A stretch of DNA of 64,000 nucleotides. Source: Sphingomonadales bacterium BRH_c42. GTDB lineage: Bacteria; Pseudomonadota; Alphaproteobacteria; Sphingomonadales; Sphingomonadaceae. Positions within the stretch are counted from its first letter, which is position 1. Every line of letters starts with the position of its first letter. The stretch covers positions 2,488-66,487 of the forward strand of contig LOEX01000107.1 in assembly GCA_001516125.1 (NCBI GenBank), in the 5' to 3' direction. Shown one piece after another: positions 37,259 through 63,928 of this stretch. A program made the translations under genes and the position numbers. Below the pieces are notes generated by a model, which saw only the letters and a list, made by a program, of their open reading frames with translations, did not search any database and was not told where the DNA came from.

Positions 37259-38370
37259 ATGACCATGGCCGCGCTAATCGATTTCTATGAGGCGCATGGC
37301 TGCATGGTCCAGCGCGGTAAGCGGATTGGGGAGCCCATGAACCGCTGACCAAGGCTTATACCCTCGCCCGGCTGCGCCACCACGTCGTTCCCCCTCTCGG
37401 CAATCGCCGCGCCAAGGATGTCACGAGTGGCGACATCGAACGGTTTGCAGCGGACGTGCTCGCAAGCAAGACCGCCAAGAACGAAAAGATAGGCCCGCGT
37501 CGGCGTATCATCGTCAAGGGCGGCCCTGGCGCATCGCGCAAGGTTGTCCGCGATCTCTCGGCCGTGTTCAGCTTCGCCAAGCGCGGCGAGATCGTGGAAC
37601 GTAATCCCGTCGCAAACGCAGCGGTGCGCAAGACCGATGGCCAGAAGACCCGCTTCCTCACTCTTGAAGAGGTGGGGCGCCTTGGCGGCGCACTCGACCA
37701 GCTTGAAAGCGAAGGCACCAACATCAAGGCGATCAACATCGCCAGGCTTTGGGCACTGACGGGCTGTCGCCGCAACGAGATCGCCGGCCTCAAATGGTCC
37801 GAGATCGATTTCGGGAATGGAATGCTCGTGCTTGAGGACAGCAAGACCGGGCATTCTGTGCGACCACTTGGCACGGCGGCGCCGACGCTGCTCCAGCAGA
37901 TCGAACAGACGAATAATTGCGAATTCGTCTTCCCGTCCGATACCGGGGAAGGACATTTCCAGGGGACGAAGACCCCATGGGCACGCGTAGTACGGAAGGC
38001 GGAACTGCCGGGCGTAACTCCGCACACCTTGCGTCACACGATCGGCTCGACCGCGATTTCGACAGGGGAAGCCATGGCGCTGACCGGGGTGATCTTGGGC
38101 CACTCAAATCCGCGCTCGACCGCAATCTATGCGCACATCCAGCATGAGCCCTCCCGCAAGGCCGCGAACCGCGTCAGCAAGAAGATCGCGGCGGCCTTCT
38201 TGCCGAAGGCCGCCCTCACCGGGCCGCTCACGGTAGAGGACCAGAAGCTGCTCCAAACGCTGAAAGCCCGGTTCGGCAAGGCCGACACTAGCGCAAGGGA
38301 ACTCCGCGAGGCCATCGCCGCTCTCGTCGAGCAGAGTGCGTCGGAGCACGACGCCATCAATGCTGCCTAG
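37259..38370 (+). pseudogene. Tyrosine integrase, N-truncated and frameshifted
   Basis: MTMAALIDFY...IGEPM stops at 37346-37348 and continues in another frame (PLTKAYTLARLRHH...); catalytic TGCRRNE, HTLRH, LGH, IYAH retained. Confidence 0.82.
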
Positions 38371-39920
38371 GACAGAATCTGCGCCGCAGTTCGGTCCGAT
38401 AGCGCGAGCAGCGTAAACGTCGGATTGACCGCGCCGCCGGTAGGAAACAGGCTTGCACCAGCGACATAGAGATTGTCGAGGCCGTGGACCCGTCCATATT
38501 CATCGGCAACGGACGATGCCGGATCATGGCCCATGATCGTGCCGCCAATCAGGTGGGCGCTGAACATCTGACCGGTCCAGACTTCGTCCGCCCCGGCGGC
38601 ATTCATCACCGCGATACCCTGATCACGCATGCGTTGCCATGCTGCAAGTGCGTCCGGGTCGTGCCGGTGCGACATCACCGGCGCGCGCGTTCCCCATTCC
38701 GTTTTGGCCCCGCCCAATGTTACGCGATTCTCGGGCAGCGGCAGCGCTTCGGCCATGCCGATCATGTTGCCGATGTGCCGCACAGCGCGGCGCATGAACG
38801 CATCGAGCGGTGCTCCGACGAGGTCGGCACGTGCGTTGGCGATGCCGGCCAGATCGTTGGGCTTGATCGATGGCGCGACGAGCCACTGGAACCCGGCATC
38901 TACCCCCCGGCGGTAACCGTCCTGGGCGATCAGCAGCGCACCCGAAACACCCATGTGCGGCTGGGTATCGATATCGTCAAACATGCCAAACACAGCGAGT
39001 GACGGGTGCGTCATCACATAGCGCCCAACCAGATCCGCGCCATTGCCGATCCCGCGCGGATGGTGATCGCTGGCCGATTGCAGCAGAAGCGCAGCATTGC
39101 CGACCACCGAGGCCGCCAGGATGACAGTGTCGGCCCGGATGCTGCGCGCTGCGCCGTTGGCTCTGTAAACGACGCCGTCAACCCTGCCCTTGCGCGATAC
39201 CAGCAGGCCAACGACCGGCGAATCGGCGTGGAAACTCGCCCCGGCGGCCTCGGCATCGGGCTTGTGTACGACCAGCGGATTGGCCAGTGCGCCTATCGGA
39301 CAGCCCGCGTCGCACCAACCATCATATATGCACGCCGGGCGCCCCCGGTACTCGACCGAGGTGATTGCCATCGGGGCTGGCGCGGTGCGCAGGCCGAGCG
39401 CATCGAATCCCCTTGCGATCGCGCTTGCCTGTCGGGTCAGCGCGAGCGGCGGCATCGGATAGGCTGCGCCGTGCGGCCGCCATACTTCGGCTCCGGCATC
39501 GCCGGATATGCCAACCTCGTCCTGTACCCGGTCGTAATGCTCCCTGAGGTCGGCATAGCCGATCGGCCAATCGAGACCCTTGCCATACAGCGAGCCCAGC
39601 TTGAAATCGGCTTCATGCATGCGCGGCCAGGTGCCATAATGGTGCAGCGCCGCACCGCCGTAGCCCCATCCGGCATTGAACCCAAAACCCACCGGATGTT
39701 CACCCCCGGTGGCGACCGGCGGCCCACCCCAGCGCAGCCGCCTGCTCCAGATCTGCGAACTGACGAGGTCGCCCATTTCCCATGCCGGTCCTGCATCGAG
39801 AACCGCGACGCGCTTACCCCCGTTCGCCAGGCGGCTGGCCAGCAAGGCCCCCGCCGCCCCGGCGCCGACAATCACCACATCGGTCTCGTCGGGCACGGCA
39901 ATGCGTGATGGCTCTACCAT
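38367..39920 (-). CDS. GMC family FAD oxidoreductase
   Basis: VVIVGAGAAG, C.YDGWCDAGC, AHLIGG..MG, NPTFT. Confidence 0.92.
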   Translation of the reverse strand: MVEPSRIAVPDETDVVIVGAGAAGALLASRLANGGKRVAVLDAGPAWEMGDLVSSQIWSRRLRWGGPPVATGGEHPVGFGFNAGWGYGGAALHHYGTWPRMHEADFKLGSLYGKGLDWPIGYADLREHYDRVQDEVGISGDAGAEVWRPHGAAYPMPPLALTRQASAIARGFDALGLRTAPAPMAITSVEYRGRPACIYDGWCDAGCPIGALANPLVVHKPDAEAAGASFHADSPVVGLLVSRKGRVDGVVYRANGAARSIRADTVILAASVVGNAALLLQSASDHHPRGIGNGADLVGRYVMTHPSLAVFGMFDDIDTQPHMGVSGALLIAQDGYRRGVDAGFQWLVAPSIKPNDLAGIANARADLVGAPLDAFMRRAVRHIGNMIGMAEALPLPENRVTLGGAKTEWGTRAPVMSHRHDPDALAAWQRMRDQGIAVMNAAGADEVWTGQMFSAHLIGGTIMGHDPASSVADEYGRVHGLDNLYVAGASLFPTGGAVNPTFTLLALSDRTAAQILS

Positions 39921-40441
39921 CTTGGGTCCGGCTCGATGTGCGGCAGATAGGGCACGCCCAGCCGTTCAAACCCGGCCTCGGTGCCATAAACCACGTCGAT
40001 CGCATCGGCGCGGAGCGCGAAATAGAAGAGCTGCGGCGGGGGAGCGCCCGTCCAACGCGCAATCGACCCGTCTGCGAGCGAAATAGCGATGGCATCCCAG
40101 TCTGCGGAGCGACCGCCGGTAACCCGCGCCAACGCGGCGAGAGCGGCCTGATAGACGCGTGCAAACGGAGGCGCGACATCAAGATAGCGCAGCATCAGCA
40201 GCGATTGCGCGGTCGGCACGCTGATATGATGATCGATATAATAGGCAAGCCCTGCCGCGCGCGCGCCAGGCACCAGCGCTTCGCCCAGATCGCCGAGTAT
40301 TGCCGCTTCGGCTGAGGTCAGCGTCCGGTATCCGGCCCCGCTTGTGGACTTTCCGACCCAGCGCGAAACCGTCGGCACGGCTACCGCCGCCACCGCTGCA
40401 ACACCGGCGCCAGCAAGCAGCTTCCGGCGAACTATCGGCAT
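39914..40441 (-). CDS. Gluconate 2-dehydrogenase subunit 3-like protein with Tat signal
   Basis: MPIVRRKLLAG + hydrophobic stretch; LVPGA..AG...YID. Confidence 0.8.
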   Translation of the reverse strand: MPIVRRKLLAGAGVAAVAAVAVPTVSRWVGKSTSGAGYRTLTSAEAAILGDLGEALVPGARAAGLAYYIDHHISVPTAQSLLMLRYLDVAPPFARVYQAALAALARVTGGRSADWDAIAISLADGSIARWTGAPPPQLFYFALRADAIDVVYGTEAGFERLGVPYLPHIEPDPRW

Positions 40442-40457: not shown

Positions 40458-41567
40458 TCACAAGTTTGGCTTTCTGAGCCCGCGCGATTCGAGCAACGGC
40501 AGTACATTGTCACGAAAGTAGGGGAATTCGTCGACATAATCGACGAAGGATAGCGTCGTCCCGCCGAAGCCAGCCGCATGCAGTTGTGAAATACCGTCGG
40601 CAACCTGTTCGGGCGTACCTATCAACGGGAAACCACCATGGCCCATCGCCATGCGGTTGCGGATCTGAACAAGCAGGTCGTGCGGAAACGACTGGGCGTG
40701 TGCGATCTGCAGCCGCACGAGATTGTCGACTGCCACCCAGTCGGCGTTGGTATGGCCGAAATATTCGGCATAGGCGCGCGCTTCAGCTTCGGTGGGGCGG
40801 CAGACAACATGCGCAAAGGTCAGCACATCAACCGGGCGCCCGCTCGCAGCCGCCTGCGCCTTTAGATCGGCCACCTCTGCCCGCGAGCGTTCGATGTCGA
40901 TCGCCGGGGTAAAAAGGAAATCGGCATTGCGCATGGCGAATTCGCGACCGAGGCCCGATCCAGCCGCATTGAGGATCGGCGGTACGCCGTTAACCGGCTT
41001 GGGATCGCTGTGTACGCCGTGCAGCCTGAAATATTTCCCCTCCCAGTCGAATGTGCTGGGGTCGGTCCACAGGCGGTGGATGATGTCGTACCATTCCTGC
41101 GCATAGGAATAACGGGTTTCGTGATCGTCCGGCAGTGCGAGCCCGAGCGCCTCGTATTCGGGCTTGTTCCAGCCGGCGACGATATTGAGCCCTGCTCGCC
41201 CGCCCGAAACGTGGTCCATTGTGGCGATCTGCTTGGCGACCACGACAGGATGATTGGCGGTGGTGTGAACAGTGCCGATCACCGCAATCCGCCTTGTGCA
41301 GGCCAGCAGGCCGGTCGCCCAGGTGATGGTTTCGAGAACATTGCCGTGAAAATTGGTCTCGCCGCCATAGCCGATCCACCGCGCGATCGGCAGCATGAAG
41401 TCGATTCCGGCATCATCGAGCAAGAGCGCGAGCTTCTGATTATTGCTCCAGCTGTTGTTCCAGCGCTCCGCGATCCTGGTCACCGTCATGCCGCTCGAAC
41501 AGTTCGACGCGAAGGTTCCAAGCTTGAAATGATTGTCTGTTCTCATGCGGTTGTGCGCAGCGGACAT
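40458..41567 (-). CDS. LLM-class flavin-dependent monooxygenase (SfnG/RutA-like)
   Basis: ARWIGYGG, AKQIATMDHVSGGRAGLNIVAGW, NAAGS..GREFA, GTPEQVAD. Confidence 0.9.
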   Translation of the reverse strand: MSAAHNRMRTDNHFKLGTFASNCSSGMTVTRIAERWNNSWSNNQKLALLLDDAGIDFMLPIARWIGYGGETNFHGNVLETITWATGLLACTRRIAVIGTVHTTANHPVVVAKQIATMDHVSGGRAGLNIVAGWNKPEYEALGLALPDDHETRYSYAQEWYDIIHRLWTDPSTFDWEGKYFRLHGVHSDPKPVNGVPPILNAAGSGLGREFAMRNADFLFTPAIDIERSRAEVADLKAQAAASGRPVDVLTFAHVVCRPTEAEARAYAEYFGHTNADWVAVDNLVRLQIAHAQSFPHDLLVQIRNRMAMGHGGFPLIGTPEQVADGISQLHAAGFGGTTLSFVDYVDEFPYFRDNVLPLLESRGLRKPNL

Positions 41568-41605
41568 TCGCACCTCGGTCGCTCGATTGGTCGGTCGTCA
41601 ATATT

Positions 41606-41751
41606 ATTTTAATCATAAACTATTTGTCAATCTGATTGTCATGCACGGCTCATCCTCCTGTGACCTGGCCGATCCGGCCCGGACCAAAAAAGGCATTGTT
41701 GCAGGCAGGAGCGGCGGATTGAATCTTGACAATATATTTTAGGTATAAAAT
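41606..41751. promoter_or_regulatory. Divergent promoters, each with a palindromic operator
   Basis: ATTTTAATCATAAACT 41606-41621 and ATTTTAGGTATAAAAT 41736-41751, each 3-4 nt downstream of a TTGACA. Confidence 0.78.
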
Positions 41752-41800
41752 ACATCTGTAATCCGGCGGTCGCCGGGACATGGGTTACGGGGAGTGGACC

Positions 41801-44239
41801 ATGATGAAAGTTGATCGTAGCGGAATTGTCGCGGGATCACTGGCAAGCATGATGGCGATGATGTTCGCCATTCCAGCCATGGCGCAAGATGCAGCCGACA
41901 CGGAGGACGAACGCTCGCTGCTCAGCGACGAAATCATCGTGACCGCACAAAAGCGCGCGCAGAACGTCCAGGATGTCGGCATCGCAATCACGACCTATTC
42001 CGGGGAACAACTGCGCGAACTCGGGGTTACCGATTCGCCCGAACTGGCGGCGTTTTCGCCTGGCGTACATATCAGCGGCAATCTCGCCGGCCAGAACACG
42101 CAGCTAACGATTCGCGGCGTCACGCAGAATGATTTCAACGACATCGTCGAGGCGCCGAACGCCGCCTATCTTGACGAAGGCTACATCGCCATTGCGCAGG
42201 GACAGACCTTCGCGGTTTTCGATATCGACCGGGTCGAACTGCTCAAGGGCCCACAGGGCACGCTGTTCGGCCGCAATGCCACCGGCGGCCTCGTGCACTA
42301 CATAAGCCGCAAGCCGAGTTTCGACGAGTTCGAGGGCTATATCGATCTCAGTTACGGACTATATGACTCGCCGACGACACCGGGCGCCTTCCGCGGCGAG
42401 GCGGCGATCGGCGGGCCGCTCGGCGAAAAGCTTGCGGCCCGCGCGTCGTTCATGTGGAGCAAGCGCGACGCGCTTCTCATCAATGATTATCCTGCGGGTG
42501 CCGTAGGTGGCTCCCCCGGGCCGGGTGCGGGGGCGAATCTGGGGGATGATGACACACTCGCCGGTCGATTCACGCTCGCAGCCAGGCCGTCGGACACTGT
42601 ACGGTTCACGCTGTCAGCCAATGCCGCGCGCAGCAATCTCGCGACGGGGCCGTATCAGCAAAAACCGACGATCAACGTCTTCGACGCAGCGGGCGAGCTA
42701 GTCAATGTCATCGATGTCGCGGCGAATGAAACGCGCGCGTCAATCGGCGGGAACGGTCAGGATCTCGGTTCCGACCTCAATAACGATGGCGTCTTTGGTG
42801 ACACATTCGGGCGGCCTGCGGGAGCCGATTTCTTCGGATTCATCGACGCGGACGGGGCCGACTTCCGGACTTCGAGCGACTTTGCGTTCAAGGATCAAGG
42901 CCAAGTCGATACCTGGGGCGTGAATCTCAAGACCGAAATCGACCTGTCGGATTCAATCACGCTGACATCGATCAGCGATTACAAGGATTTCGAGAAGCTG
43001 CTGTTCATTGACGTCGACGCCGGGCCGGGCAACCAGTCGGCGAATTATGCCGGTGTCGATGCGACGACGTTCACGCAGGAACTGCGCCTCAACGGCAAGA
43101 CCGACTCCATCAATTGGGTTGCCGGTCTTTATTACCTCAACATTGACGCGCAATCGGCCAACGGGCTGAAGTTCCCGGTTGGCAGCGTGGTTCCTGGTGC
43201 TCCGTTCGATCTCGCTTCAGTGGCACACCTCAAGACCAACAGCTATTCGGCGTTTGGCCAGGCCGAATGGGAATTCGCCGAAAAGTTCACGCTGATCATC
43301 GGCGCACGGGTCATCCGCGAGGAAAAGAATTACAATTTCTTCCAGGCGCTGTTTTTCACGCAGGATTCACGCCAGATCAATCAGGGCGCGCCACTGGTGA
43401 TCGGGCCGGTGTTCGGATCCGGCGGACCGGAAGCCTTCGCGGCCGATACCGGGCAGACGCTGTGGGCGGGTAAATTCCAGCTTGAATACCGCCCGAACAA
43501 TGACCTGCTGCTCTACGCCGGCGCCAACCGCGGGGTGAAGGCAGGCAGCTTCAACGCGCAGTTGGCGGGCGGTCTTGCGGTTCCCGCCAGCGCAATACCC
43601 TATAAGGACGAAACGCTGATCAGCTATGAAGGTGGTTTCAAGCTGACCCTGCCCGATGGCCGCACACGCATCAACGGGTCGACATTCTATTACGACTACA
43701 ATGATTATCAGTCGTTCCTGTTCACCGGCGTTTCGGGTGTGGTGATCAATGCCGATGCGCGCACCTACGGCGGCGAATTGGAACTTCAGACCTCGCCGCT
43801 TTCCGGCCTCGATATCGCTGCCGGAGTTTCGTGGTTCGACGCGACGGTAAAGGACGTGCCGCTGCGTGTCGGTGGGCCGATCATACGTGACGTAAAACCG
43901 ACTTACGCGCCGGAGTTCCAGCTCAACGGCCTGATCCGCTATGCCTGGGATGCGCTCGGCGGGCGAATGTCGATCGGCGGCGACGCGCAATATTCCGATT
44001 CGTATTTCTACAATCTGCGCAATTTCGACGCCGACAAGTTCAACAGCTATTTCGTGCTGAACGCCGGCATTTCGTGGACCGATGCTAGCGACACCTGGCG
44101 GCTCGGTTTAGATGTGAAGAACATCACCGACGAGCGCGTCGGCATTCAGGGCTTCGATCTGGCCGGCCTGTGCGGTTGCAACGAGGTGTCCTACAAGCCA
44201 CCGCGCTTCTTTGCCTTGAGTTCGCGCTATTCGTTCTGA
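41801..44239 (+). CDS. TonB-dependent receptor
   Basis: Signal peptide, EIIVTAQKR, ELLKGPQGTLFGRNATGG, C-terminal Phe. Confidence 0.95.
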   Translation: MMKVDRSGIVAGSLASMMAMMFAIPAMAQDAADTEDERSLLSDEIIVTAQKRAQNVQDVGIAITTYSGEQLRELGVTDSPELAAFSPGVHISGNLAGQNTQLTIRGVTQNDFNDIVEAPNAAYLDEGYIAIAQGQTFAVFDIDRVELLKGPQGTLFGRNATGGLVHYISRKPSFDEFEGYIDLSYGLYDSPTTPGAFRGEAAIGGPLGEKLAARASFMWSKRDALLINDYPAGAVGGSPGPGAGANLGDDDTLAGRFTLAARPSDTVRFTLSANAARSNLATGPYQQKPTINVFDAAGELVNVIDVAANETRASIGGNGQDLGSDLNNDGVFGDTFGRPAGADFFGFIDADGADFRTSSDFAFKDQGQVDTWGVNLKTEIDLSDSITLTSISDYKDFEKLLFIDVDAGPGNQSANYAGVDATTFTQELRLNGKTDSINWVAGLYYLNIDAQSANGLKFPVGSVVPGAPFDLASVAHLKTNSYSAFGQAEWEFAEKFTLIIGARVIREEKNYNFFQALFFTQDSRQINQGAPLVIGPVFGSGGPEAFAADTGQTLWAGKFQLEYRPNNDLLLYAGANRGVKAGSFNAQLAGGLAVPASAIPYKDETLISYEGGFKLTLPDGRTRINGSTFYYDYNDYQSFLFTGVSGVVINADARTYGGELELQTSPLSGLDIAAGVSWFDATVKDVPLRVGGPIIRDVKPTYAPEFQLNGLIRYAWDALGGRMSIGGDAQYSDSYFYNLRNFDADKFNSYFVLNAGISWTDASDTWRLGLDVKNITDERVGIQGFDLAGLCGCNEVSYKPPRFFALSSRYSF

Positions 44240-44334: not shown

Positions 44335-45117
44335 ATGACGGCAGCGCTGCTTGCAGATCTCGCCTCGGGCATCGCCACAGGCACAATTCGCATTGTCGAC
44401 CTGACTGAAACGCTCCGTCCGGAATATCCGACGATCACCTTGCCTTCTGAATTTGGACAGGCCTCTCCATTCGTGAAGCGGCAGATTTCCAGATATGATG
44501 CGGCAGGCCCGGCATGGTATTGGAACAACTTCACCCTCAGCGAACACACCGGCACGCATTTCGATGCCCCGGTCCATTGGGTGACCGGCAAGGATGTGGC
44601 GAACGGTTCGGTCGACACGATCGAACCCGCCCGCTTCATCGCGCCGGCCTGCGTCATCGATTGCAGCCGCGAAGTCGCCGCCAATCCCGATTTCCTTCTG
44701 ACAGTCGATGTGCTGGAAGCGTGGGAAGACAGACATGGCCGCATTCCGGCGGGTGCATGGGTATTCCTGCGTTCGGACTGGCGCAAGATCGCATCGCCCG
44801 ACAACTATACCGGGCTTGACGAAAACGGAGCGCACTCCCCAGGACCTGACGCCGATGCGGTGTTGTGGATGATCGCGCGCGAGGCCATAGGCTTTGGCAC
44901 CGAATGCGTCGGCACCGATGCCGGGCAGGCGTTTCGCTTCGAACCGCAATATCCCTGCCACCATTACATGCACGGAGCCGGAAAATACGGCTTGCAGTGC
45001 ATGACCAATCTCGATCTGCTGCCGCCGACCGGCGCGATCATCGTGGCCGCGCCGCTCAAGATCGAAGAGGGTTCGGGCAGCCCGCTGCGTGTCCTCGCGC
45101 TCGTTCCGGGGGCATAG
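44335..45117 (+). CDS. Cyclase family amidohydrolase (isatin hydrolase / KynB-like)
   Basis: WYWNNF..SEHTGTHFDAP.HW.TGKD, GTE.VGTDAGQ, GSGSPLR. Confidence 0.88.
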   Translation: MTAALLADLASGIATGTIRIVDLTETLRPEYPTITLPSEFGQASPFVKRQISRYDAAGPAWYWNNFTLSEHTGTHFDAPVHWVTGKDVANGSVDTIEPARFIAPACVIDCSREVAANPDFLLTVDVLEAWEDRHGRIPAGAWVFLRSDWRKIASPDNYTGLDENGAHSPGPDADAVLWMIAREAIGFGTECVGTDAGQAFRFEPQYPCHHYMHGAGKYGLQCMTNLDLLPPTGAIIVAAPLKIEEGSGSPLRVLALVPGA

Positions 45118-48765: not shown

Positions 48766-49155
48766 TCAGTCGGGGATTACCGCAGTGGCTTCGATCTCGA
48801 TCAGCGCCTCGCGCTCGACCAGACCGACAACCTGCACAACCGCCATGGCGGGAAAGTGGCGGCCCATGACCTTGCGATAGACATCGCCCAATTCCCTGGC
48901 TGCGGCCAGATAGGCATCGCGGTCGAGAATATACCAGGTCATCCGCACGATGTGCTCAGGCCCTGCGCCCGCTTCGCCCAGAACCGTCACGATATTGACC
49001 AGGGTCTGATGGAACTGGGCAACGAGGCCATCGGCGAAGACGCCTTCGGCATCCCAGCCAACGAGCCCGCCAAGATAGATCGTTTCGCCGCGCGCTGCGA
49101 CGCCGTTCGAATAGCCCTTGGGTCGTGGCCAGCCTTTGGGTTGCAATATCTTCAC
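48766..49155 (-). CDS. RidA/YjgF family protein
   Basis: LQPKGWPRPKGYSNG, FPAMAVVQV..LVE...IEIEATA. Confidence 0.9.
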   Translation of the reverse strand: MKILQPKGWPRPKGYSNGVAARGETIYLGGLVGWDAEGVFADGLVAQFHQTLVNIVTVLGEAGAGPEHIVRMTWYILDRDAYLAAARELGDVYRKVMGRHFPAMAVVQVVGLVEREALIEIEATAVIPD

Positions 49156-49220
49156 GCCGTTTCCTATTACCGCCCGTCGTCCATGGCAATTAGCTTGACT
49201 TGCCATTCGATTGAACCGAT

Positions 49221-49236: not shown

Positions 49237-49259
49237 GAAGTCCAGAATTACCTTGCGCA

Positions 49260-52312: not shown

Positions 52313-52313
52313 G

Positions 52314-53123: not shown

Positions 53124-53626
53124 GGCGCGTCGATGCTTTCCATTCGGTCGTGGACATCGTGATAAAGCTGGGTGACCAGGGTCAGTAAGGTCTTCATGTC
53201 CCGGTCGGATACGCTCTCGAACATCTCGTCGACCCATAGCTCATGATGCGCCGCCATCGCCGCGAATGCTTTGCGACCCTTTGCGGTCAGACTGACATAG
53301 AGCGTGCGGCGATCATCGGGATCGGCGTTGCGCTCGACCAGCCCGCCCTCGACTAGTCGGCTGACCAATCCTGTCACATTGCCGTTCGAAACCAGCAGCC
53401 GGTCCGAAAGCCGGCTCATGGTCACCGGCCCGGATTCGCGATCTAGCGCGGCGAGTACGTCGAAACGTGGCAACGTCGTATTGCAGCCAGCCTTCAGCCT
53501 CGAACGCAGCGTCTTTTCAATGATTGTCGTCGTTCCGAGCATGCGCAGCCACAACCTCAAGGACTGTTTTGCATGCGGCGATGCGGTATCTGCCGCGTAC
53601 AGGCGCGGTTTTGCCTTCGACTTCAC
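53120..53626 (-). CDS. MarR family transcriptional regulator
   Basis: [28 protein letters not shown]. Confidence 0.92.
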
Positions 53627-54384
53627 ATGACCTCTCCACCGGCAATCGCGATCGATTGACCATTTACAGACGCCGATAGCGGATCACAAAGCCAAAACAC
53701 AGCGGCGGCGACTTCGTCGGGGTCGATCAGCCGGTTTTGCGGGTTTTCCTTGATGAAAGCGGCAAGCGCCTCCTCCCGTGTCATGCCGGTCTTGCGCATC
53801 ACTATGTCGAGCGACCGCTCCAGCAGGCCGGTGTCGGTAAACCCCGGGCAGACGGCGTTCGCTGTCGCGCGCGTTCCCGCAATTTCGAGCGCCAGCGAGC
53901 GGGTCAGACCAATGACGCCGTGTTTTGCCGCAGCATAGGCAGATGTGTAGGCATAGCCCTTCAGCCCTGCTGTGCTCGCGACGTTGATGATCCGGCCGTT
54001 GGGTGCGGAGATGATCGATGCAAGCAAGGCGCGACTGCACAGGAATGTGCCAGTCAGATTAAGCGCGATCATGCGCTGCCACAGGTCGAGCGATGTTTTG
54101 GCGAGCGGTGCAGTTTCTGCCCCACCGGCATTGTTGACAAGAATGGACACCGGGGCACGCGCAGTCGCCGACTCCATGGCAATGGCCACCGAGGCTTCAT
54201 CGGTAATGTCGAGGTGCACCGCCTGAGCGTCGGGGAACGTCGCGCAAAGTGAGCGCAGCCTGTCGACATCGCGCGCCGCCAGGGTCAGTTTTGCCCCTTC
54301 GGCGGCGAGCCGCCGCGCGATTGCCGCACCGATTCCCGTGCCGCCACCAGTAATGACGACGTGTTGACCAGCAAGGTGGCTCAT
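53623..54384 (-). CDS. SDR dehydrogenase (3-hydroxyacyl-CoA dehydrogenase-like)
   Basis: [17 protein letters not shown]. Confidence 0.92.
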
Positions 54385-56684: not shown

Positions 56685-56716
56685 ACTGACTCCATGAGTT
56701 GAAGGATCACGATTTT

Positions 56717-56732
56717 ATTTTAATCTTAAACT
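56717..56732. promoter_or_regulatory. Palindromic operator upstream of abmA
   Basis: ATTTTAATCTTAAACT. Confidence 0.72.
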
Positions 56733-56742
56733 ATCATTTGCG

Positions 56743-57732
56743 TCAAGGTGCCCCCGATGGTCGCAGAACACCGTCGCCGCTGCGCAAGAGCGGCGCGGAA
56801 TGCGCCGGCAGGGGGGCTCCGGGTGCCTCCGCCAGGGTAACTCCGTACGGCCAGTCCGACGGCGCAATTGCGACGAAGCGGGCAAGCCCGCCGGTGCCAC
56901 CCTCGGGACGTGCAAAGCCGATCGATACGAGCGCGCCGGATTCGGGTACCTTGTCGAGATTCGCGACAGATTCGGCCTGCGTGAAATTGTTCTTCAGCAG
57001 CCATGCCTCGGCTTCGAAAGTGGGCGAATTGTCAGTATCGAGCGTTTCGTGGCCGTGGAACAGGATGTGCCGTTTGAGGTGAAGTAGTTTCAACGTCGCA
57101 AGGCTGACGCCCGGATGGGGCGAGCGCTGGAAGCGTTCGGGGTTCGACCACAGGCGCGACCAATCCGAGCGGAACATCACCACAGAACCGGCCGGGATGC
57201 GACCGTGCCGCCGTTCCCAGGCGGCGATGTCCGTGGGCGTCGCTTCATAGCCCGCATTCTTCGCAACCTTTGGTGCGATATTGATGACGACAAGCGGCCG
57301 AAGCGCGTAGGTTGGCGGAATATCGCTGATCGTTGCGCCGTGCGCGTTGAAGTGGGCTGGTGGATCAAGTTGGGTGCCGACCTGATCCGACCCGAAGCCA
57401 TAGGCAGTGATTGCACCCCCGACATGCGCATAATCCAAGGGTTCCCCACGCATGACGAGACCGGGAATGGCGCTGTCCGCGCGCGCATCGGAGACCGTCA
57501 TTTCGCCAAGGCCTGCGCCACGCGCCTGCCCCGGCGCGAAGGCATGGGTCAAATCGATGTATTTCGCGCCGGAAAGCCCTGTCGTATAGATTGGCCATAG
57601 TGAGGCCGGTGGATCAGGTGGGCCAAGGGTCTCGCTCCACAGTGCAAATGCACCCGCAGCGCCGATCAGAAGCGCGGCAACCCCAATGGTATTGCGATGA
57701 CTGGTCAATCCCACCCTCCGCTGCGTCGACAC
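56743..57732 (-). CDS. Exported cyclase-family protein with variant metal motif
   Basis: N-terminal signal/TM; QVGTQLDPPAH instead of HxGTHxDxPxH; GHETLDTD. Confidence 0.82.
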   Translation of the reverse strand: MSTQRRVGLTSHRNTIGVAALLIGAAGAFALWSETLGPPDPPASLWPIYTTGLSGAKYIDLTHAFAPGQARGAGLGEMTVSDARADSAIPGLVMRGEPLDYAHVGGAITAYGFGSDQVGTQLDPPAHFNAHGATISDIPPTYALRPLVVINIAPKVAKNAGYEATPTDIAAWERRHGRIPAGSVVMFRSDWSRLWSNPERFQRSPHPGVSLATLKLLHLKRHILFHGHETLDTDNSPTFEAEAWLLKNNFTQAESVANLDKVPESGALVSIGFARPEGGTGGLARFVAIAPSDWPYGVTLAEAPGAPLPAHSAPLLRSGDGVLRPSGAP

Positions 57733-57743: not shown

Positions 57744-58793
57744 CTAGTAATTGATCGCAGGCGACATCGACGGATAGAATACGCCGACCAGCAGCATGCC
57801 TTCAGGACTGGTGCATTCGACCGAATGCGACTGCTTGCGCGGCAGGAAGATCACGTCACCTGCCTTCAGGGCAGCTTTGGTCCGATCAGTCCACATGATA
57901 CCATCGCCCGACAGCACCAGCAACGTCTCTTCATAGAGGTGGTGGTGGTGCGCGGCGCGCGACAGGGGAATATGTCCGATGAATTGCGTCACCTGGGTGC
58001 CATGGTGTTCTCCATCGACCAGCACCTGGTAAAACCGATCGGCCATTGCCGAGCGTTTCGCCGGGTCGAGCGGGACGATGCGAATCGGCACACTCGTATC
58101 GAAACCCGCAGGCATGTCGTCGAGAATCTCGGGCATTGGGCCAAGCGGGCAGACCGAGATGTTGAAAACGAACGGTTGGCCGCTGTCGGCGATCAGCCTG
58201 AACGCTTCACTGGCGCGGACATAGGCCCCGCTATGCGCAGCAAGATCGAACGATCGCGCGCCGATTTCGATCTTCCCGGTTCCGGATACGATGAACAGGG
58301 CCGCATCGCTGCCAGCAAAGCGCAGCACCGGAGAGGTGCCTGCCTCAAGCTGGCCTGCGAACTGGCTGATGTGCTTTGCCCCGTCACCCGGACCGATCGT
58401 TTGTTGCATACGCAACCGTCCGAACTGCTTGCCGCTGCCTGGGCGAAGCACGAAGCAATCGCTGTCAAGCTGCGCGCGCGCGCCCTCTGGTGTTTCGACG
58501 AAGGTGACCGTTTCGGCGTCCGTGGCGGCATCCATCGGCTCGCCGTAGCTGTCAGACAGCGCATTGTGCGACCCGTCGCACCACGGGCCGCCGCGGGTCC
58601 GCTTGCAGGCGCATAGAAGCGCATCACCGTTTTCTTCAGCCTTGAAGGCCAGCGGCTCGATGCCGGTGCCTTTGTGCGATCCGTCGCAGTATGGTTGCTT
58701 GCTGCTCCTGCCGCACGCGCACCAGAAATAGGTGCGGCCTGCAACAAGTTCGACAAGGCACGGCTTTACCGCCGCGACCACAGCTTTGGTCAC
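57744..58793 (-). CDS. Tandem CDGSH [2Fe-2S] domain + bicupin fusion
   Basis: CACGRS..QPYCDGSH and CACKRT..PWCDGSH, then two cupins, the second with HHHHLYEE...H. Confidence 0.85.
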   Translation of the reverse strand: MTKAVVAAVKPCLVELVAGRTYFWCACGRSSKQPYCDGSHKGTGIEPLAFKAEENGDALLCACKRTRGGPWCDGSHNALSDSYGEPMDAATDAETVTFVETPEGARAQLDSDCFVLRPGSGKQFGRLRMQQTIGPGDGAKHISQFAGQLEAGTSPVLRFAGSDAALFIVSGTGKIEIGARSFDLAAHSGAYVRASEAFRLIADSGQPFVFNISVCPLGPMPEILDDMPAGFDTSVPIRIVPLDPAKRSAMADRFYQVLVDGEHHGTQVTQFIGHIPLSRAAHHHHLYEETLLVLSGDGIMWTDRTKAALKAGDVIFLPRKQSHSVECTSPEGMLLVGVFYPSMSPAINY

Positions 58794-58818: not shown

Positions 58819-61128
58819 TCAGAACCGCCGTGTTACGCTGACACCCAATGTGCGCGGGCGCACTGTGATGAACGCCAGCGGATCCTGATCCGACGAAATC
58901 GCATCGACCTGCGCACGCTTGTCGAAGATATTGCGCGCGAAGGCCACGAGGGTCCAGTCGTCATTCTTGATCCCGATCCGCAGGTTGGCCAGTGCATAGC
59001 TGCCAAGCCGGACATCGAAGCCGTCGCGCTCGCGGCCAAGCGTGGTATGCGAACTGCCGCGATGGCTGACATCGGCATGCACGATATAGTTCAGCGTATC
59101 GGTCAGGGGTCGTTCGACGTCGAGGTTCAAACTGCCGATGAATTTGGGCACATTGGGAATCTTGTCGCCGTCAAGACCAAGGCTGGGCGGTCTGGGCCCT
59201 GTTTCCGGCCCTGGTTGATCGTCGGTCAGATTGGCATCCTGGTATGACCCGCCGAGATTGAGCGTGACGCCGGTTGCGACGCGCGCGGTCAGTTCGAGTT
59301 CGGCACCGTCGACATTGGCCGAACCCGCGTTGGTAGTGAACGGGAAGGCACCGGTTGCATCAAGCGCACGCACCTGGATGTTCGACCAGTCGATGTGATA
59401 CACCGCACCATTGAGCCATATCCTGCCGTCCGCGAGGGTCAGCTTGGCGCCCAGTTCATAGTTCCATAGCGAATCAGAATCATACCCGCGTGGAATCCCC
59501 GATGCGAAAGGCAGGTCCGCCTGGTTGAGCCCGCCGACGCGAAAACCCTGCGCGGCGGTCGCGTATACCAGCACATCGCCGTTCGGCTTCCAGTTCAGGT
59601 TGAATTTGTAGGTCGCCTTCGAATCCGAATCGTGGTTGCTGAGCACGCCCGGCGGGTTCGGTCCGAAGCCGCCAAACGGATGCGTCGTTTCCTGGCGCGA
59701 GTTCAAGGTTGAATCAAAGTAACGCGCACCAACCGTGCCCGACAGGGTTGAGGTGAAGTCGAAGGTCGCTTCACCGAACACTGCAAACTGCCGCAGCCGG
59801 TTGTTGTCGAAACGCCCGAAGAAGGTGTTGCCGTCAGGGTTGCTCAGCGCATCGTCGGAATTCAGCCGACTGAACGGCCCGCGGGGCTCGCCAAAGCCGT
59901 TCGAACGCACCACCTGCACATCGAAATCGGATTTCTCCTTGCTGTAGAAGCCGCCGATGACAAGGTTGAAGGGGCCGTCGAATTTCGATGCATAGCGAAG
60001 TTCATTCGACCAGATACGGCGTGATTGCGGCTGGATGGTAATGCCGGGAATCGGCACGCCGAAGAAGAACAGGATCGGAGAGGAATCGAACACGAAATTG
60101 ATGTCACGGTCAAAATAGTTGGTCGTTGCGACAATGCTGCCGCGATCGAAGGCATATTCCCCCGTCAGACTGTAAACCTCGATCTGCTCGTCATATGGGC
60201 TGCGGGTCAGATCGGTATTGATCAGATCGCCCCCGGGAACCGGCGGAAAGCCATTGGCCGCATCACCGAAGGAAAGCGAGCCTGACGGCGTGAAACGCGA
60301 AGACCCGTCGGAATGCGTGTCTTGAATTGTCGCCGACGCCGTAAGCGAAAAATCGCTGGTCGGCGTGTAGCGCAAACTCGCGCGCCCGCCCGAAGTCTCG
60401 TCGGTGTTGATATTGTCGAGACGGCCTGACGGAATGCGCGTGGCGTCGATGTATCCGCTGTTGTCGATGTACCAGCCGACCACGCGCATTGCCAGCTTGT
60501 CCTCGACGATCGGCAGGTTGATTGCACCGTTGACGCTGTAATTGGCGCCCCCCTTTTCGGTATCCGAAAGATCGCCGGCAATATAGCCGCTGACTTCATC
60601 GGCAACAGGCTTGTTGGTGATGATGCGGATCGTGCCGCTTTCGGAACTGGCACCATAGAGCGTGCCCTGCGGCCCCTTCAGAACCTCGATTCGTTCGATG
60701 TCGTAGAGGCGTATGTCGGCATTTCGGCCGCCGCCGTCGTTGCGGTTGTCGGCGCTGATGACCGCTTCGTCGTAATAGGCCCCCACGGTAGCAGCGCCGG
60801 TCGAATTGATGCCGCGGATGATGTATTTCTTGTCGCCCGGACCAAGGTCCTGGAAAGTAAGGCTGGGGACGCGCGCCGCAAAATCGATGAACTCGACCGC
60901 ACCTGCATTGCCGAGTGCCTTGCCGGTGATTGCCTGGATCGAGATCGGCACGCCCTGGAGCGCTTCGTCGCCACGCTTTGTCGCGGTAACGATGATTTCT
61001 TCAAGACCAGTGCCCACGGTATCAACACTCTCGGCATCGGCCTCCTGAGCTTGGGCGGGCGCAAACTGGGCGGTGGCAAGCACAAGCGCGCAACATGCCG
61101 CTGACAGGCGTAGATCAGGCTTAGTCAT
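58819..61128 (-). CDS. TonB-dependent receptor
   Basis: Signal peptide, EEIIVTATKR, EVLKGPQGTLYG, terminal Phe. Confidence 0.95.
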   Translation of the reverse strand: MTKPDLRLSAACCALVLATAQFAPAQAQEADAESVDTVGTGLEEIIVTATKRGDEALQGVPISIQAITGKALGNAGAVEFIDFAARVPSLTFQDLGPGDKKYIIRGINSTGAATVGAYYDEAVISADNRNDGGGRNADIRLYDIERIEVLKGPQGTLYGASSESGTIRIITNKPVADEVSGYIAGDLSDTEKGGANYSVNGAINLPIVEDKLAMRVVGWYIDNSGYIDATRIPSGRLDNINTDETSGGRASLRYTPTSDFSLTASATIQDTHSDGSSRFTPSGSLSFGDAANGFPPVPGGDLINTDLTRSPYDEQIEVYSLTGEYAFDRGSIVATTNYFDRDINFVFDSSPILFFFGVPIPGITIQPQSRRIWSNELRYASKFDGPFNLVIGGFYSKEKSDFDVQVVRSNGFGEPRGPFSRLNSDDALSNPDGNTFFGRFDNNRLRQFAVFGEATFDFTSTLSGTVGARYFDSTLNSRQETTHPFGGFGPNPPGVLSNHDSDSKATYKFNLNWKPNGDVLVYATAAQGFRVGGLNQADLPFASGIPRGYDSDSLWNYELGAKLTLADGRIWLNGAVYHIDWSNIQVRALDATGAFPFTTNAGSANVDGAELELTARVATGVTLNLGGSYQDANLTDDQPGPETGPRPPSLGLDGDKIPNVPKFIGSLNLDVERPLTDTLNYIVHADVSHRGSSHTTLGRERDGFDVRLGSYALANLRIGIKNDDWTLVAFARNIFDKRAQVDAISSDQDPLAFITVRPRTLGVSVTRRF

Positions 61129-61230
61129 GTTTCCTCCCCATGGCAGTACGGAAATTGAAGTCCGCGACGCGATTATGCCGGGCGCGAGACGAACGCCTGC
61201 CGAGCCCGAATCTTGCATCATAAAAAAACT

Positions 61231-61246
61231 ATTTTCAACTTAAAAT
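61231..61246. promoter_or_regulatory. Palindromic operator between divergent TBDR and transporter
   Basis: ATTTTCAACTTAAAAT. Confidence 0.72.
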
Positions 61247-61352
61247 ATCTAGCTATCCGGTCACCTTGCCTTATGATGCGGCGACAACTGCGGCTTGCGG
61301 TTTCCTTTTGCCATGCGCAGGACCGACAGCCGTGCATGGGAAAGGTAGAGAT

Positions 61353-62744
61353 TTGAACAAGCAGATCGCGGAGAACACCATACCTGATCGGGCTGTTGAA
61401 GGCTGGTCTTCGCGGATCGGCTTTCTGCTGGCGACGGTCGGTGCTGCGACGGGCCTGGGCGGGCTCTGGCGATTCCCGTTCATTGCGGGCGAAAACGGCG
61501 GCGGAGCCTTCGTATTGCTCTATCTCGTTTTCGTCATTCTGCTCGGAATGCCGATCATGATGGCCGAGATGGCGATCGGCAGGCTTGGGCAGCACAGCGC
61601 TGTGGGCAGTATTCGCCGTCTCGTCGCCGAGGGTCGCCATGCCCGCGTGTGGCAGTCCATCGGCCTGCTCAGCGTCTTCATTCCCTTTTTCGGGCTTGCC
61701 TATTACGCGGTCGTGGCAGGCTGGTCGCTCGATTATCTGTTTCTGGCAGCGACTGGCGCGCTTGACGCTGCCACCCCTGATGCCTCACGTCGGGCATTCC
61801 AGTCTTACACTACCGCCCCGCCGCGCCAGTTGCTGTTGCACGCTGCCTTCATCGTCATGACCGTGGTCGTCGTCTCGCGCGGCATAACGGGCGGGATCGA
61901 ACGCGCTTCACGGATCATGATGCCGGCGCTGTTCGTGATCCTTGTGGCTCTCGCAATCTACAACATGGCGACCGGTGCCGGTGCCGAAGCTGCCGATTTC
62001 CTGCTGCGCCCGGACTTTGGCAAGATCACCCCCGAAGTTGCGCTGATGGCGATGGGCCATGCGCTGTTCTCGCTGGCGGTCGGCGTCGGCATGCTGATCA
62101 CTTACAGCGCCTATGCTTCACCGGCCTATCGGTTACCGTCGGCGGTTGCCATTATTGCAGGGGCCAACACGCTGGTAGCGATCCTTGCGGGCCTTGCGAT
62201 CTTTTCGGTCGTGTTCGGTTACGGGCTCGATGCGGGCGAGGGGCCAGGGCTGCTGTTCGTGACGCTGCCGGTCGGCTTTGCACTTATGCCAGGCGGCCGG
62301 ATTGTCGCGACATTGTTCTTCCTCTTGGTTGTTTTTGCCGCTTACACCACGACCATCGGCATGCTCGAGCCTGTGGTGGCGTGGCTCGACGAGAAGCTGA
62401 AGTGGGGGCGCGCAAGACTGGCTTGGCTGGCTGGCGCTGGTGCCTGGCTGGCAGGGATCCTGCCCGTGCTGTCGTTCAATGTGCTTGCCGACTGGCATCC
62501 GCTCGGCGGCATCAGGCTGCTCGCGGGCAAGACGATGTTCGACCTGTATGACTTCTTTATTTCAACGGCGCTGCTTCCGCTGAACGCGCTGCTTATTGCG
62601 CTGTTCGTCGGCTGGGCGCTCGGCACGCGCATGACCGGCGACGCGCTCGGTCTCGGAAGCGGGCCTGGCTTCCGGGCGTGGTCGTTGCTGCTTCGCTTTG
62701 TCGTACCGGTCGCGATCACCATCCTGTGGCTCAAATCATGGTAA
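61353..62744 (+). CDS. Sodium-dependent transporter (NSS/SNF family)
   Basis: WSSRIGFLLA.VG.A.GLG.LWRFP...GENGGGAF; ~11-12 TM segments; start uncertain. Confidence 0.9.
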   Translation: MNKQIAENTIPDRAVEGWSSRIGFLLATVGAATGLGGLWRFPFIAGENGGGAFVLLYLVFVILLGMPIMMAEMAIGRLGQHSAVGSIRRLVAEGRHARVWQSIGLLSVFIPFFGLAYYAVVAGWSLDYLFLAATGALDAATPDASRRAFQSYTTAPPRQLLLHAAFIVMTVVVVSRGITGGIERASRIMMPALFVILVALAIYNMATGAGAEAADFLLRPDFGKITPEVALMAMGHALFSLAVGVGMLITYSAYASPAYRLPSAVAIIAGANTLVAILAGLAIFSVVFGYGLDAGEGPGLLFVTLPVGFALMPGGRIVATLFFLLVVFAAYTTTIGMLEPVVAWLDEKLKWGRARLAWLAGAGAWLAGILPVLSFNVLADWHPLGGIRLLAGKTMFDLYDFFISTALLPLNALLIALFVGWALGTRMTGDALGLGSGPGFRAWSLLLRFVVPVAITILWLKSW

Positions 62745-62749
62745 GAACG

Positions 62750-63928
62750 ATGGAGCAACACCTCATGCACTGTGATAATATCGATTCCGGTATCGACTGG
62801 GAGCGCCAGCGGGCACGCTTCCCGATTTTCGGCTCGACGCTCTACATCAACAGCTGTTCCTATGGGGCGTTGTCGAACGAGGTGGAAGCAGCGTTTCTCG
62901 CTTACCTTGCCGACCGCCACGCCAATGGCAGCGACTGGGACAATTGGGTTGGTCACAACGAGGCGCTGCGCGTCGATTACGCCGGACTTTTGGGCGTTTC
63001 GCCTGCGGAAATCGCCGTCACGCCGTCAGCCTCGGCCGGCATCAACTCTGTAGCCAGCGCAATGGACTTTTCGGGCGTGCGCAACAAGGTCGTCATTACC
63101 GACCTCGAGTTCCCGACCAACGCTCAAATCTGGTATGCTCAGGAGCCGCGCGGGGCGGTTGTCGAGCGCGTCACTGCCAGCGATGGAGCCGATCTCATCG
63201 AAAGCCTCTCAGCGGCGATCGACGAGACGACGCGCATCGTCGCGGTAACGCACGTTTGCTACCGCAATGGCGAAAAACTGGACATTGCAGCGATCGGTAA
63301 GCTGGCGCGGGCCAAGGGTGCGTATTTCCTCGTCGACGGGTACCAGGCGGCGGGCACCATGGCGATCGAACTTGCTTCGTGGGGGGCTGATTTCTACGTT
63401 GGCGGCACGCTGAAATATCTGCTGGGCACAGCCGGTGTCGGCTATCTTTATGCGCGTCATGCTATTCTCGATCAACTGCAACCCACGGTGACCGGCTGGT
63501 TTGCACAGGAGAATATCGGCGAGATGGACCATACCCGCCACACCCCGGCGCACAGTGCGCGCAAGTTCGAGGGCGGAACACCGCCGGTGCCCAATATTTA
63601 TGCTGCACGCGCCGGGATTGGCATTCTTGCGCAAATCGGCCTTCACTCGATCGAGGCTCGGATTTCAGGGCTTACTGCGCGCATCGTCGAGCACGCTGAA
63701 GCGGCCGGTATTGCGCTTGCAACTCCCGCCGATGCCAAATGCCGCGGCGCGATGGTCGCGCTGCGTTGCCGCGATGCAGGCGGACTCGTTGACGCCCTAA
63801 GTCATGAGAATATCGTGACATCGTGGCGCGACGGCAACCTCAGGCTGTCGCCGCATTTCTACAACAATGAGGATGATATCGACATGGTTTTTGCCGCGCT
63901 GGGCCGACACGCGCACCTCGTTAGCTAG
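62750..63928 (+). CDS. Class V PLP enzyme, kynureninase-like
   Basis: YINSCSYG, EFPT, DGYQAAG, GGTLKYLLG..G, TGWF, FEGGTP, R.SPHFYN. Confidence 0.82.
   Translation: MEQHLMHCDNIDSGIDWERQRARFPIFGSTLYINSCSYGALSNEVEAAFLAYLADRHANGSDWDNWVGHNEALRVDYAGLLGVSPAEIAVTPSASAGINSVASAMDFSGVRNKVVITDLEFPTNAQIWYAQEPRGAVVERVTASDGADLIESLSAAIDETTRIVAVTHVCYRNGEKLDIAAIGKLARAKGAYFLVDGYQAAGTMAIELASWGADFYVGGTLKYLLGTAGVGYLYARHAILDQLQPTVTGWFAQENIGEMDHTRHTPAHSARKFEGGTPPVPNIYAARAGIGILAQIGLHSIEARISGLTARIVEHAEAAGIALATPADAKCRGAMVALRCRDAGGLVDALSHENIVTSWRDGNLRLSPHFYNNEDDIDMVFAALGRHAHLVS

Follow-up and report, generated by a model that had tools for sequence, protein, structure and literature searches.

A tRNA-flanked island of Sphingomonadales bacterium BRH_c42 links two separate upper modules to isatin hydrolase, IorAB and an abm operon

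The DNA analysed here is a stretch of 64,000 nucleotides (the window) from contig LOEX01000107.1 (C107, positions 2,488 to 66,487) of the Sphingomonadales bacterium BRH_c42 assembly. Its right-hand part holds a catabolic island in which an isatin hydrolase-like cyclase (cyclase 1), an IorAB-type enzyme and an abm operon are accompanied by two further sets of genes (Table 1). Module A is made up of a luciferase-like monooxygenase (LLM), a GMC flavoprotein of the twin-arginine translocation (Tat) type and a first TonB-dependent receptor (TBDR1). Module B comprises a CDGSH-bicupin fusion, a class-V pyridoxal-phosphate (PLP) enzyme, an amino-acid transporter and a second receptor (TBDR2). Profile searches found all genes named in the initial annotation of this DNA in their places. 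Missed at that stage were the boundaries of the island, its broken integrase, a common operator and the lack of a CoA ligase. The cluster is real, bounded and co-conserved, and likely co-regulated.

Table 1. Features of the island and its left edge (window coordinates; a dependent prediction is marked as such)
Feature	Position	Strand	Basis and assignment
tRNA-Gly(GCC) 3'-end copy, 17 bp	37007..37023	+	left island edge, splits island from upstream prophage
Tyrosine integrase, 5' part disrupted by frameshifts and stops	37200..38370	+	PF00589; reading frames
GMC flavoprotein large subunit, CxxxxxCxxxCP motif	38367..39920	-	glucose/fructose dehydrogenase large subunits, E 1e-56 (PDB); dioxindole or 2-aminomandelate dehydrogenase predicted
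Small subunit (module A), RR leader, gluconate 2-dehydrogenase subunit 3 type	39914..40438	-	42% identical to L166 protein matching PF13618
LLM, likely start 41546 or 41567	40458..41573	-	SfnG/RutA branch; oxindole C3-hydroxylase predicted
Operator palindrome upstream of LLM, overlaps sigma70-like site	41605..41622		motif scan
Perfect operator palindrome upstream of TBDR1-cyclase-iorAB	41735..41752		motif scan
TBDR1 (module A)	41780..44239	+	family match
Isatin hydrolase (cyclase 1; HTGTHFDAPVH, WYW, GLQC)	44335..45117	+	PDB 5NMP E 1.8e-108 vs KynB E 1e-4; motifs
IorA-type thiamine diphosphate (ThDP)/Fe-S subunit (iadA-like)	45127..47262	+	PF02775; TIGR03336 274 bits, under 651 cut-off
IorB-type subunit (iadB-like)	47262..48764	+	NF006179 684 bits, above 348 cut-off
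RidA family	48766..49170	-	family match
Operator palindrome between RidA and OYE	49220..49237		motif scan
Stand-alone old-yellow-enzyme-type reductase (OYE)	49260..50714	+	family match
abm lower operon: thioesterase, acyl-CoA dehydrogenase, enoyl-CoA hydratase (PRK08258), MarR (53120-53626), SDR	50721..54384	-	family matches
AbmA-type bifunctional aryl-CoA monooxygenase/reductase	54381..56684	-	NF006101 1271 bits, above 1078 cut-off
Operator palindrome upstream of abmA, overlaps sigma70-like -10	56716..56733		motif scan
Second cyclase, hydrophobic N-terminus, altered motif QVGTQLDPPAH; optional module B part	56743..57732	-	motifs
MiNT-like double CDGSH domain + bicupin fusion, one His3-Glu site	57744..58793	-	motifs, model; oxygenase on tryptophan/oxindolylalanine predicted
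TBDR2, likely start ~61128 (module B)	58819..61221	-	family match
Operator palindrome between TBDR2 and NSS	61230..61247		motif scan
Neurotransmitter:sodium symporter (NSS) family amino-acid transporter (module B)	61266..62744	+	family match
Class-V PLP enzyme, kynureninase paralog (module B)	62765..63928	+	profile, alignment, model; C-beta/C-gamma retro-aldolase predicted

The island is approximately 27 kb long and flanked by tRNA-Gly repeats. An intact tRNA-Gly(GCC) gene lies ahead of the window (C107:656-730), and a 55-bp copy of its 3' end (98%) at C107:66738-66792, equivalent to window 64251-64305, forms the right edge, so that the island ends 305 bp beyond the window. Given the disrupted integrase, the island is probably immobile. 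Positions 1-37006 are prophage-like, with terminase, portal, capsid, tail and lysis open reading frames (ORFs) as read from ORF translations; this prophage occupies the same tRNA-Gly site and precedes the island. The GC content between the two repeat copies of the island is 61.3% compared with 63.9% in the prophage. In three other sequencing runs (X15, X16 and X17), 37007 is the first position of the contigs that hold the island, with hardly any read depth over 30000-37004; in X16 and X17 the letters of the tRNA precede 37007 and the prophage is absent. Run X20 was fragmented. As three runs hold the island without the prophage, its presence at the tRNA does not depend on the phage, and the idea that the cluster is prophage cargo was rejected. 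The 759 bp of contig past the window contain the tRNA-Gly repeat and the end of a LysR-like gene, labelled from its translation, and inspection of this remaining contig sequence revealed no iad or iac genes between the window end and the island end. This rules out a canonical upper pathway just past position 64,000, one of the two findings that would have spoken against the initial annotation. The DNA was found in subsurface, groundwater and oil metagenomes, with no RNA data set among the holders listed, and a syntenic copy with 75-77% nucleotide identity is present in a Pontixanthobacter metagenome-assembled genome (MAG). Within the host genus, the bicupin was found in none of 36 genomes.

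In the core of the island, cyclase 1 matches the solved isatin hydrolases (5NMP, 5NNA, 4J0N) with E values of 1e-108 to 1e-86 and kynurenine formamidases with only 1e-4. The isatin hydrolase signature consists of the metal motif HxG[T/A]HxDxPxH, a WxW motif and GLQC/GLAS (PMC6117287). Cyclase 1 carries the full metal motif, WxW and GLQC, and its assignment as an isatin hydrolase that would convert isatin to isatinate is well supported at the sequence level. Curated NCBIfam cut-offs were passed by AbmA, the enoyl-CoA hydratase and IorB; those of the nearest named families were not reached by IorA, LLM and the PLP enzyme. An attack of AbmA on anthraniloyl-CoA, with beta-oxidation-type steps afterwards, is likewise a well-supported prediction. 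No anthranilate-CoA ligase was found in the island, none of whose ORFs is of the AMP-binding type, and the host genome, whose 78% completeness limits all absence calls made on it, showed neither a TIGR02262 match above cut-off nor an ortholog of a cluster-linked ligase from other genomes. The latter query is a ligase by Pfam, its specificity for anthranilate being assumed from gene context. The island also has no thiolase ORF that could represent IadG. In agreement with the initial annotation, no Rieske oxygenase was detected among the island ORFs scanned; the beta subunit PF00866 was not found in the host genome, and its two PF00848 genes are on other contigs. A stand-alone OYE is present in addition to the reductase domain contained in AbmA, and OYE beside RidA recurs adjoining iorAB/abm or LLM-GMC in loci L136, L193, L202, L206 and L209.

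Every intergenic gap that heads a transcription unit contains one copy of an 18-bp palindrome, TATTTTA-N4-TAAAATA. With up to three mismatches, five sites were found in the window, compared with a mean of 0.07 in shuffled sequences, and five were reached in 0/100 shuffles. At up to two mismatches the five island sites are the sole matches in 2.19 Mb; at three mismatches, eight further sites occur elsewhere. As the pattern was derived from these five sites, the count in the own genome is partly circular, and the orthologs serve as the independent test. With up to two mismatches, the palindrome was located at most 400 bp upstream of 17/43 LLM orthologs (0/860 shuffles) and 9/35 PLP enzyme orthologs (0/700 shuffles). 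Across neighbourhoods, 115 sites were counted in 73 of 203 module loci vs. 3 sites in 2 of 46 control loci. MarR is the sole regulator in the island, and orthologs of the regulators of related loci were not found in the host genome. The transcription units likely constitute one MarR regulon, and MarR itself is likely a repressor binding to the palindrome. Compared with the IAA-binding IadR type of MarR, it gave 3BOQ as best PDB match and only weak matches to 3CDH and 7KFO (E 4e-5 and 1e-4). Genome-style promoter and terminator scans of 44200-64000 gave results at chance (7 vs. 5.8 and 15 vs. 17.5).

The distribution of the genes was compared in a single sample of 300 genomes from the order that excluded the host genome, with overlaps tallied manually from the carrier lists. 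Carriers numbered 67 for iorA, 31 for the PLP enzyme, 35 for the bicupin and 19 for LLM, the latter including 16 close orthologs. LLM genomes G261, G274 and G130 (37-43% identity; two have iorA) and LLM loci L183-L189 were left out before the counts. Both iorA and isatin hydrolase were present in all PLP enzyme carriers (31/31) and all close-LLM carriers (16/16). The bicupin occurred in 30 of the 31 PLP enzyme carriers, which span 11 genera in 7 families, and iorA in 33/35 bicupin genomes. PLP enzyme and close LLM were found together in only 6/300 genomes. The GMC gene, searched in 69 genomes (the iorA carriers plus two), was present in 15/16 close-LLM genomes vs. 1/25 genomes with the PLP enzyme but lacking LLM. 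The same picture emerged from a comparison of neighbourhoods, which used loci of 2-21 kb reaching outside the order and CDGSH-domain-only loci as controls. A core gene was found in 30/70 module B loci, 16/39 LLM loci and 0/46 control loci; LLM was seen in 0/70 module B loci, and neither the PLP enzyme nor the CDGSH-bicupin in any of the 39 LLM loci. Beyond the order, all of five distant genomes carrying LLM also encode an isatin-hydrolase-like protein and four of them have iorA, and module B is spread across Alpha- and Gammaproteobacteria. Co-conservation of the upper genes with isatin hydrolase, ior and abm, proposed as a check by the initial annotation, is thus seen across genomes and loci, and the operator is common to them. 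The LLM, GMC, cupin and PLP enzymes had been joined there into a single upper pathway; all are co-conserved with the core, but LLM/GMC and cupin/PLP have separate distributions and hence do not form one upper pathway. Modules A and B are two independent modules, each tied to isatin hydrolase-iorAB, and most likely take two different substrates.

In module A, LLM scored 184 bits against SfnG (cut-off 383) and 162 bits against RutA (cut-off 498), under both cut-offs. A flavin reductase gene often follows LLM (10/39 loci), and the host genome has one elsewhere. Whether or not LLM is present, the GMC gene directly adjoins that of isatin hydrolase or those of iorAB in several loci, including L262, L215 and L094. 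Its product had been described as a Tat protein; however, it is the small subunit, and not the GMC protein, that bears the twin-arginine leader, and the small subunit itself gave no Pfam match. Hydroxylation of oxindole followed by oxidation of the carbinol is the simplest fit for module A, with oxindole as the putative substrate. Several variants of the LLM neighbourhood were observed. In Tabrizicola loci FMO, SDR and AraC genes precede LLM-reductase-iorBA-hydrolase, and Roseibium aggregatum IAM 12614 (L149), the source species of the solved isatin hydrolases A and B, carries an LLM with 73% identity together with a flavin reductase. Phytoene-dehydrogenase-like flavoproteins flank isatin hydrolase in LLM loci L145-L148, L159 and L272, which have no GMC gene, and are a possible alternative to it. 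Other sphingomonad-type loci (L217:5260-6351, L218:5300-6376, L224:18214-21466) combine a TBDR-Tat-GMC block with Rieske-like oxygenases and an extradiol dioxygenase, not with LLM.

The bicupin of module B carries two CxCx9Cx3H motifs (C25 C27 C36 H40 and C61 C63 C72 H76) that are invariant in 74 sequences, and its CDGSH domain matches 3TBN with E 2.5e-23. Conserved metal ligands (His3-Glu) are found only in the C-terminal cupin. The confident structure model (pLDDT 88) resembles quercetinase YxaG at 16% identity (Z 22.4; 239 residues superposed with an rmsd of 3.0 A). Our best guess is an oxygenase fed by its own [2Fe-2S] clusters; it may instead be an isomerase or a peroxide-handling protein. 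The family has 1,700 matches, listed under generic names only. Actinomycetota and Acidobacteriota frequently contain bicupins of approximately 250 amino acids that lack the CDGSH domain but share features and fold with the island protein (ESM Atlas clusters), and the ESM Atlas search returned only unnamed cupin and LLM clusters. The second cyclase, initially annotated as exported, is present and has a hydrophobic N-terminus. Gln replaces His at two of its metal-ligand positions, and neither GLQC nor WxW is found; this change at both His positions occurs in 10 of 47 cyclase motifs of the loci scanned. This QxGTQxDPPxH subfamily (vs. HxGTHxDAPxH), with a hydrophobic or lipoprotein-like leader, accompanies module B in L109-L116, L026, L029, L035 and L039; its nearest solved structure is C-PTE 8F9X.

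The PLP enzyme had been called kynureninase-like. It reached 83 bits against the kynureninase profile TIGR01814 (cut-off 246.4), compared with 270 for the host kynureninase (KynU), and therefore falls outside that family. Against SufS (TIGR01979) it scored 134 bits (cut-off 475), with EFPTN in place of EHHSN. KynU 1QZ9 is its best PDB sequence match (E 2e-28, 23% identity), and superposition of the model on KynU gave Z 41.9 and rmsd 2.9 A over 373 residues. FPT, GWF, GTP, the PLP Lys and the C-terminal Arg are kept, whereas the family has FPTN, DGYQ and TLK/MLK where KynU has FPTD, DxxH and TYK. At the positions of KynU Asp132, His204 and Tyr226 the family carries Asn, Gln and Leu/Val/Met/Asn/Phe (mostly Leu/Met/Val); the three residues are catalytic in KynU, a point that none of the open papers searched confirmed. 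In a quick tree of class-V enzymes, in which long branches meet and SufS was not included, KynU rows form a separate clade, the only point drawn from this tree. A true KynU above cut-off is encoded in the host genome and 23/31 PLP enzyme genomes, with 203-240 bits in six more; in the host, TDO, a KynB-like cyclase and KynU are all on contig C84, separate from the island. Since a true KynU coexists, we rejected the PLP enzyme as a replacement of KynU. The family has 4,055 matches at E<=1e-40, listed under generic names only, often 'cysteine desulfurase'. In Woeseia and related Gammaproteobacteria (L119-L134, L141), larger module B clusters contain a second class-V enzyme, a threonine-dehydratase-like PALP and two amidohydrolases, as well as an F420-type LLM, an FAD oxidase and an Nramp-like transporter.

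Module B loci contain an amino-acid transporter (NSS or APC) in 43/70 cases and an ortholog of the Shewanella heme protein SO4414 in 17/70, which makes a tryptophan-type amino acid a likely substrate. SO4414 has a putative IDO-like activity, for which the literature search gave no confirming open paper; as an obligatory partner this heme protein was ruled out, being present in only 3 of 45 genomes tested. The initial annotation had envisaged an unassigned N-heteroaromatic substrate; module B points rather to the tryptophan-type amino acid, which we regard as the probable substrate.

Taken together, these data lead us to propose that two kinds of oxidised indole are funnelled into isatin and then into anthraniloyl-CoA. 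In module A, LLM would hydroxylate oxindole at C3 to dioxindole using FMNH2 from a host flavin reductase, and the Tat-exported GMC enzyme would oxidise the carbinol to isatin. In module B, TBDR2 and the NSS transporter would import tryptophan or oxidised tryptophan, and the CDGSH-bicupin would oxygenate tryptophan or oxindolylalanine at C3 with the help of both its [2Fe-2S] clusters and the single metal site of its cupin part. The PLP enzyme might then use ketimine-enamine chemistry of the kynureninase/SufS type for a retro-aldol cleavage of dioxindolylalanine at its C3 carbinol, giving isatin and alanine; the lactam could open earlier or later. In kynureninase, a ketimine intermediate allows the bond between C-beta and C-gamma of a gem-diol to be broken, with release of alanine (PMC7461572). 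As dioxindolylalanine is already hydroxylated at the carbon attacked by KynU, isatin and alanine could arise without addition of water. The absence of GMC from genomes with module B only implies that the core is reached without a carbinol dehydrogenase, as expected of a retro-aldol reaction giving isatin. Isatin hydrolase would convert isatin to isatinate (2-aminophenylglyoxylate), and IorAB, judged by the chemistry of its family, would decarboxylate it oxidatively to 2-aminobenzoyl-CoA. Anthraniloyl-CoA would thus be made without an ATP-dependent ligase and passed to AbmA. Oxindolylalanine and dioxindolylalanine are major abiotic degradation products of tryptophan (PMC8228365), and a metabolite route from oxindole through dioxindole and isatin to anthranilate has been reported in bacteria (PMC6221969). 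The funnel via isatin or isatinate to anthraniloyl-CoA is probable. The model as a whole stands slightly below an even chance, and each specific upper reaction, predicted from family chemistry, is tentative and somewhat more doubtful still. For module B, a new route in which a non-Rieske, non-heme CDGSH-bicupin oxygenase leads to dioxindolylalanine, then to isatin and alanine, and through IorAB to anthraniloyl-CoA without ATP is conceivable, though on the unlikely side.

Several observations weigh against this proposal. In 47 of 54 loci of GMC relatives no isatin hydrolase lies within 10 kb. The fold match of the bicupin to YxaG ties with seed globulins and DUF861 proteins, which makes these generic neighbours only, and the model of the PLP enzyme is equidistant from SufS, KynU, PvdN and C-DES (Z 41-42.5). 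The palindrome is absent from the Steroidobacteraceae and Woeseia module B loci checked. As 14 of the 31 PLP enzyme genomes belong to one genus, the counts overstate independence. Two bicupin genomes (G037 and G059) lack iorA, the PLP enzyme and isatin hydrolase, and at L105:2419-5446 in G059 a truncated bicupin without the CDGSH domain is divergent from TDO and KynU. A CoA ligase of the cluster type is carried by 16/31 PLP enzyme genomes and is missing from 15/31 and the host genome. Finally, the Variovorax iadC-K2 region yields anthranilate without iadA/iadB, and the cyclase IadI of this organism acts downstream of C8H7NO2 (PMC12633357). The isatinate step may therefore be carried out by an enzyme other than Ior, and the ring opened by the cyclase may be that of dioxindole instead of isatin.

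One alternative, which we consider unlikely, is that module B degrades D-tryptophan or substituted tryptophan as a second kynurenine pathway: a heme dioxygenase or the cupin would produce N-formylkynurenine, a cyclase would deformylate it and the PLP enzyme, as a divergent kynureninase, would release anthranilate. In this reading, isatin hydrolase and IorAB would serve other inputs. The match to 1QZ9 with its retained GWF, GTP, FPT and C-terminal Arg, the SO4414-type heme protein in 17/70 loci, the G059 bicupin copy adjoining TDO/KynU and the ligase in about half of the PLP enzyme genomes would all be in line with such a pathway. It is difficult to reconcile with the PLP enzyme score far below the KynU cut-off in genomes with a true KynU, with the three changed active-site positions (roles as given above) and with a heme protein confined to so few genomes; moreover, isatin hydrolase and iorA accompany the PLP enzyme in every genome and the ligase does not. 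If instead both modules acted in series, the PLP enzyme would beta-eliminate oxindole or dioxindole from oxindolylalanine or dioxindolylalanine, aminoacrylate would go to RidA, and LLM and GMC would oxidise oxindole to isatin. A single regulon does unite both modules, RidA and the core in the island as well as in the Pontixanthobacter MAG and G066, and class-V beta-lyases of the C-DES type are structurally as near as KynU. Such a series is nevertheless quite improbable: 25/31 PLP enzyme genomes have no close LLM, GMC is missing in 24 of those 25, and 10/16 LLM genomes are without the PLP enzyme.

The funnel could also be right and the substrates others. LLMs hydroxylate, epoxidise and run Baeyer-Villiger reactions on many substrates. 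With such broad family chemistry, module A might act on skatole, 3-methyloxindole, indole-3-carbaldehyde or -carboxylate, or a quinolinone; and/or the cyclase might convert dioxindole to 2-aminomandelate, to be oxidised to isatinate by GMC. The position of IadI downstream of C8H7NO2 (PMC12633357) and the pairing of GMC elsewhere with Rieske monooxygenases and extradiol dioxygenase clusters fit with this. The isatin hydrolase signature of cyclase 1, the direct contact of GMC with hydrolase or iorAB in L262, L215 and L094, and the isatin-hydrolase-like gene in all five LLM carriers outside the order speak for isatin, and we rate other substrates as unlikely.

Compared with known systems, the island resembles the lower half of an iad locus joined to abm and is not an iad, iac or iif locus. 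The iad auxin loci of Variovorax and Bradyrhizobium (PMC9613470, PMC12633357, PMC10374108, PMC12852158) likewise contain iorA/iorB (iadA/iadB), a cyclase and a MarR repressor, and isatin, isatinic acid and anthranilate are reported as their intermediates; iadA/iadB are iad marker genes (PMC9613470). IorA and IorB of the island were likened to them by family profiles. The island lacks the IadCDE Rieske oxygenase, the IadF ligase, the IadG thiolase and the ABC binding protein, and has instead module A with LLM/Tat-GMC, module B with CDGSH-bicupin/PLP, their TonB receptors and an entire abm operon. With the isatin hydrolases LaIHA, LaIHB and RsIHA (PMC6117287; 5NMP, 5NNA, 4J0N), cyclase 1 shares metal motif, WxW and GLQC, whereas cyclase 2 differs in its His-to-Gln changes and hydrophobic leader and is nearest to C-PTE (PMC12135135). 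The abm pathway of Azoarcus evansii has AbmA, SDR, MarR, enoyl-CoA hydratase, acyl-CoA dehydrogenase, thioesterase and RidA in common with the island; a 2-aminobenzoate-CoA ligase is lacking here, entry being predicted through IorAB, and a stand-alone OYE is added. An outline of the abm pathway is given in PMC6221969. KynU of P. fluorescens (1QZ9) and the PLP enzyme have fold type I, class V in common and differ in the three active-site residues. Two CDGSH motifs with invariant Cys/His as in the bicupin are found in MiNT/Miner2 (6AVJ, 3TBN), and the bicupin fold in quercetinase YxaG (1Y3T, 2H0V); the island protein fuses both parts in one chain. Like the three-subunit dehydrogenases GDH/FDH/GADH, the GMC enzyme combines a flavoprotein bearing an Fe-S Cys motif with a small Tat subunit, but the island has no ORF for a cytochrome c subunit. 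Dioxindole or dioxindole-3-acetate is central to the iif indole pathway of Acinetobacter and to iac, as in our model (PMC6221969, PMC7225977). These sources describe iif as avoiding isatin by means of IifA and iac as leading to catechol, and no island protein is annotated as one of these enzymes. In a literature search, mainly of open papers, neither module was found described, and no bacterial gene set for degradation of dioxindolylalanine or oxindole and no CDGSH-cupin came up.

The island offers candidate enzymes for two questions at once, namely where bacterial isatin hydrolases obtain their isatin and what iadA/iadB do, and its operator is a direct handle for finding the inducer. The CDGSH-bicupin and the PLP enzyme represent large families whose listed members have only generic names. 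If the model is true, the oxindole-dioxindole-isatin route described in metabolite work would gain its genes, and module B would possibly be a new route for oxidised tryptophan, i.e. a bacterial sink for oxidatively damaged tryptophan.

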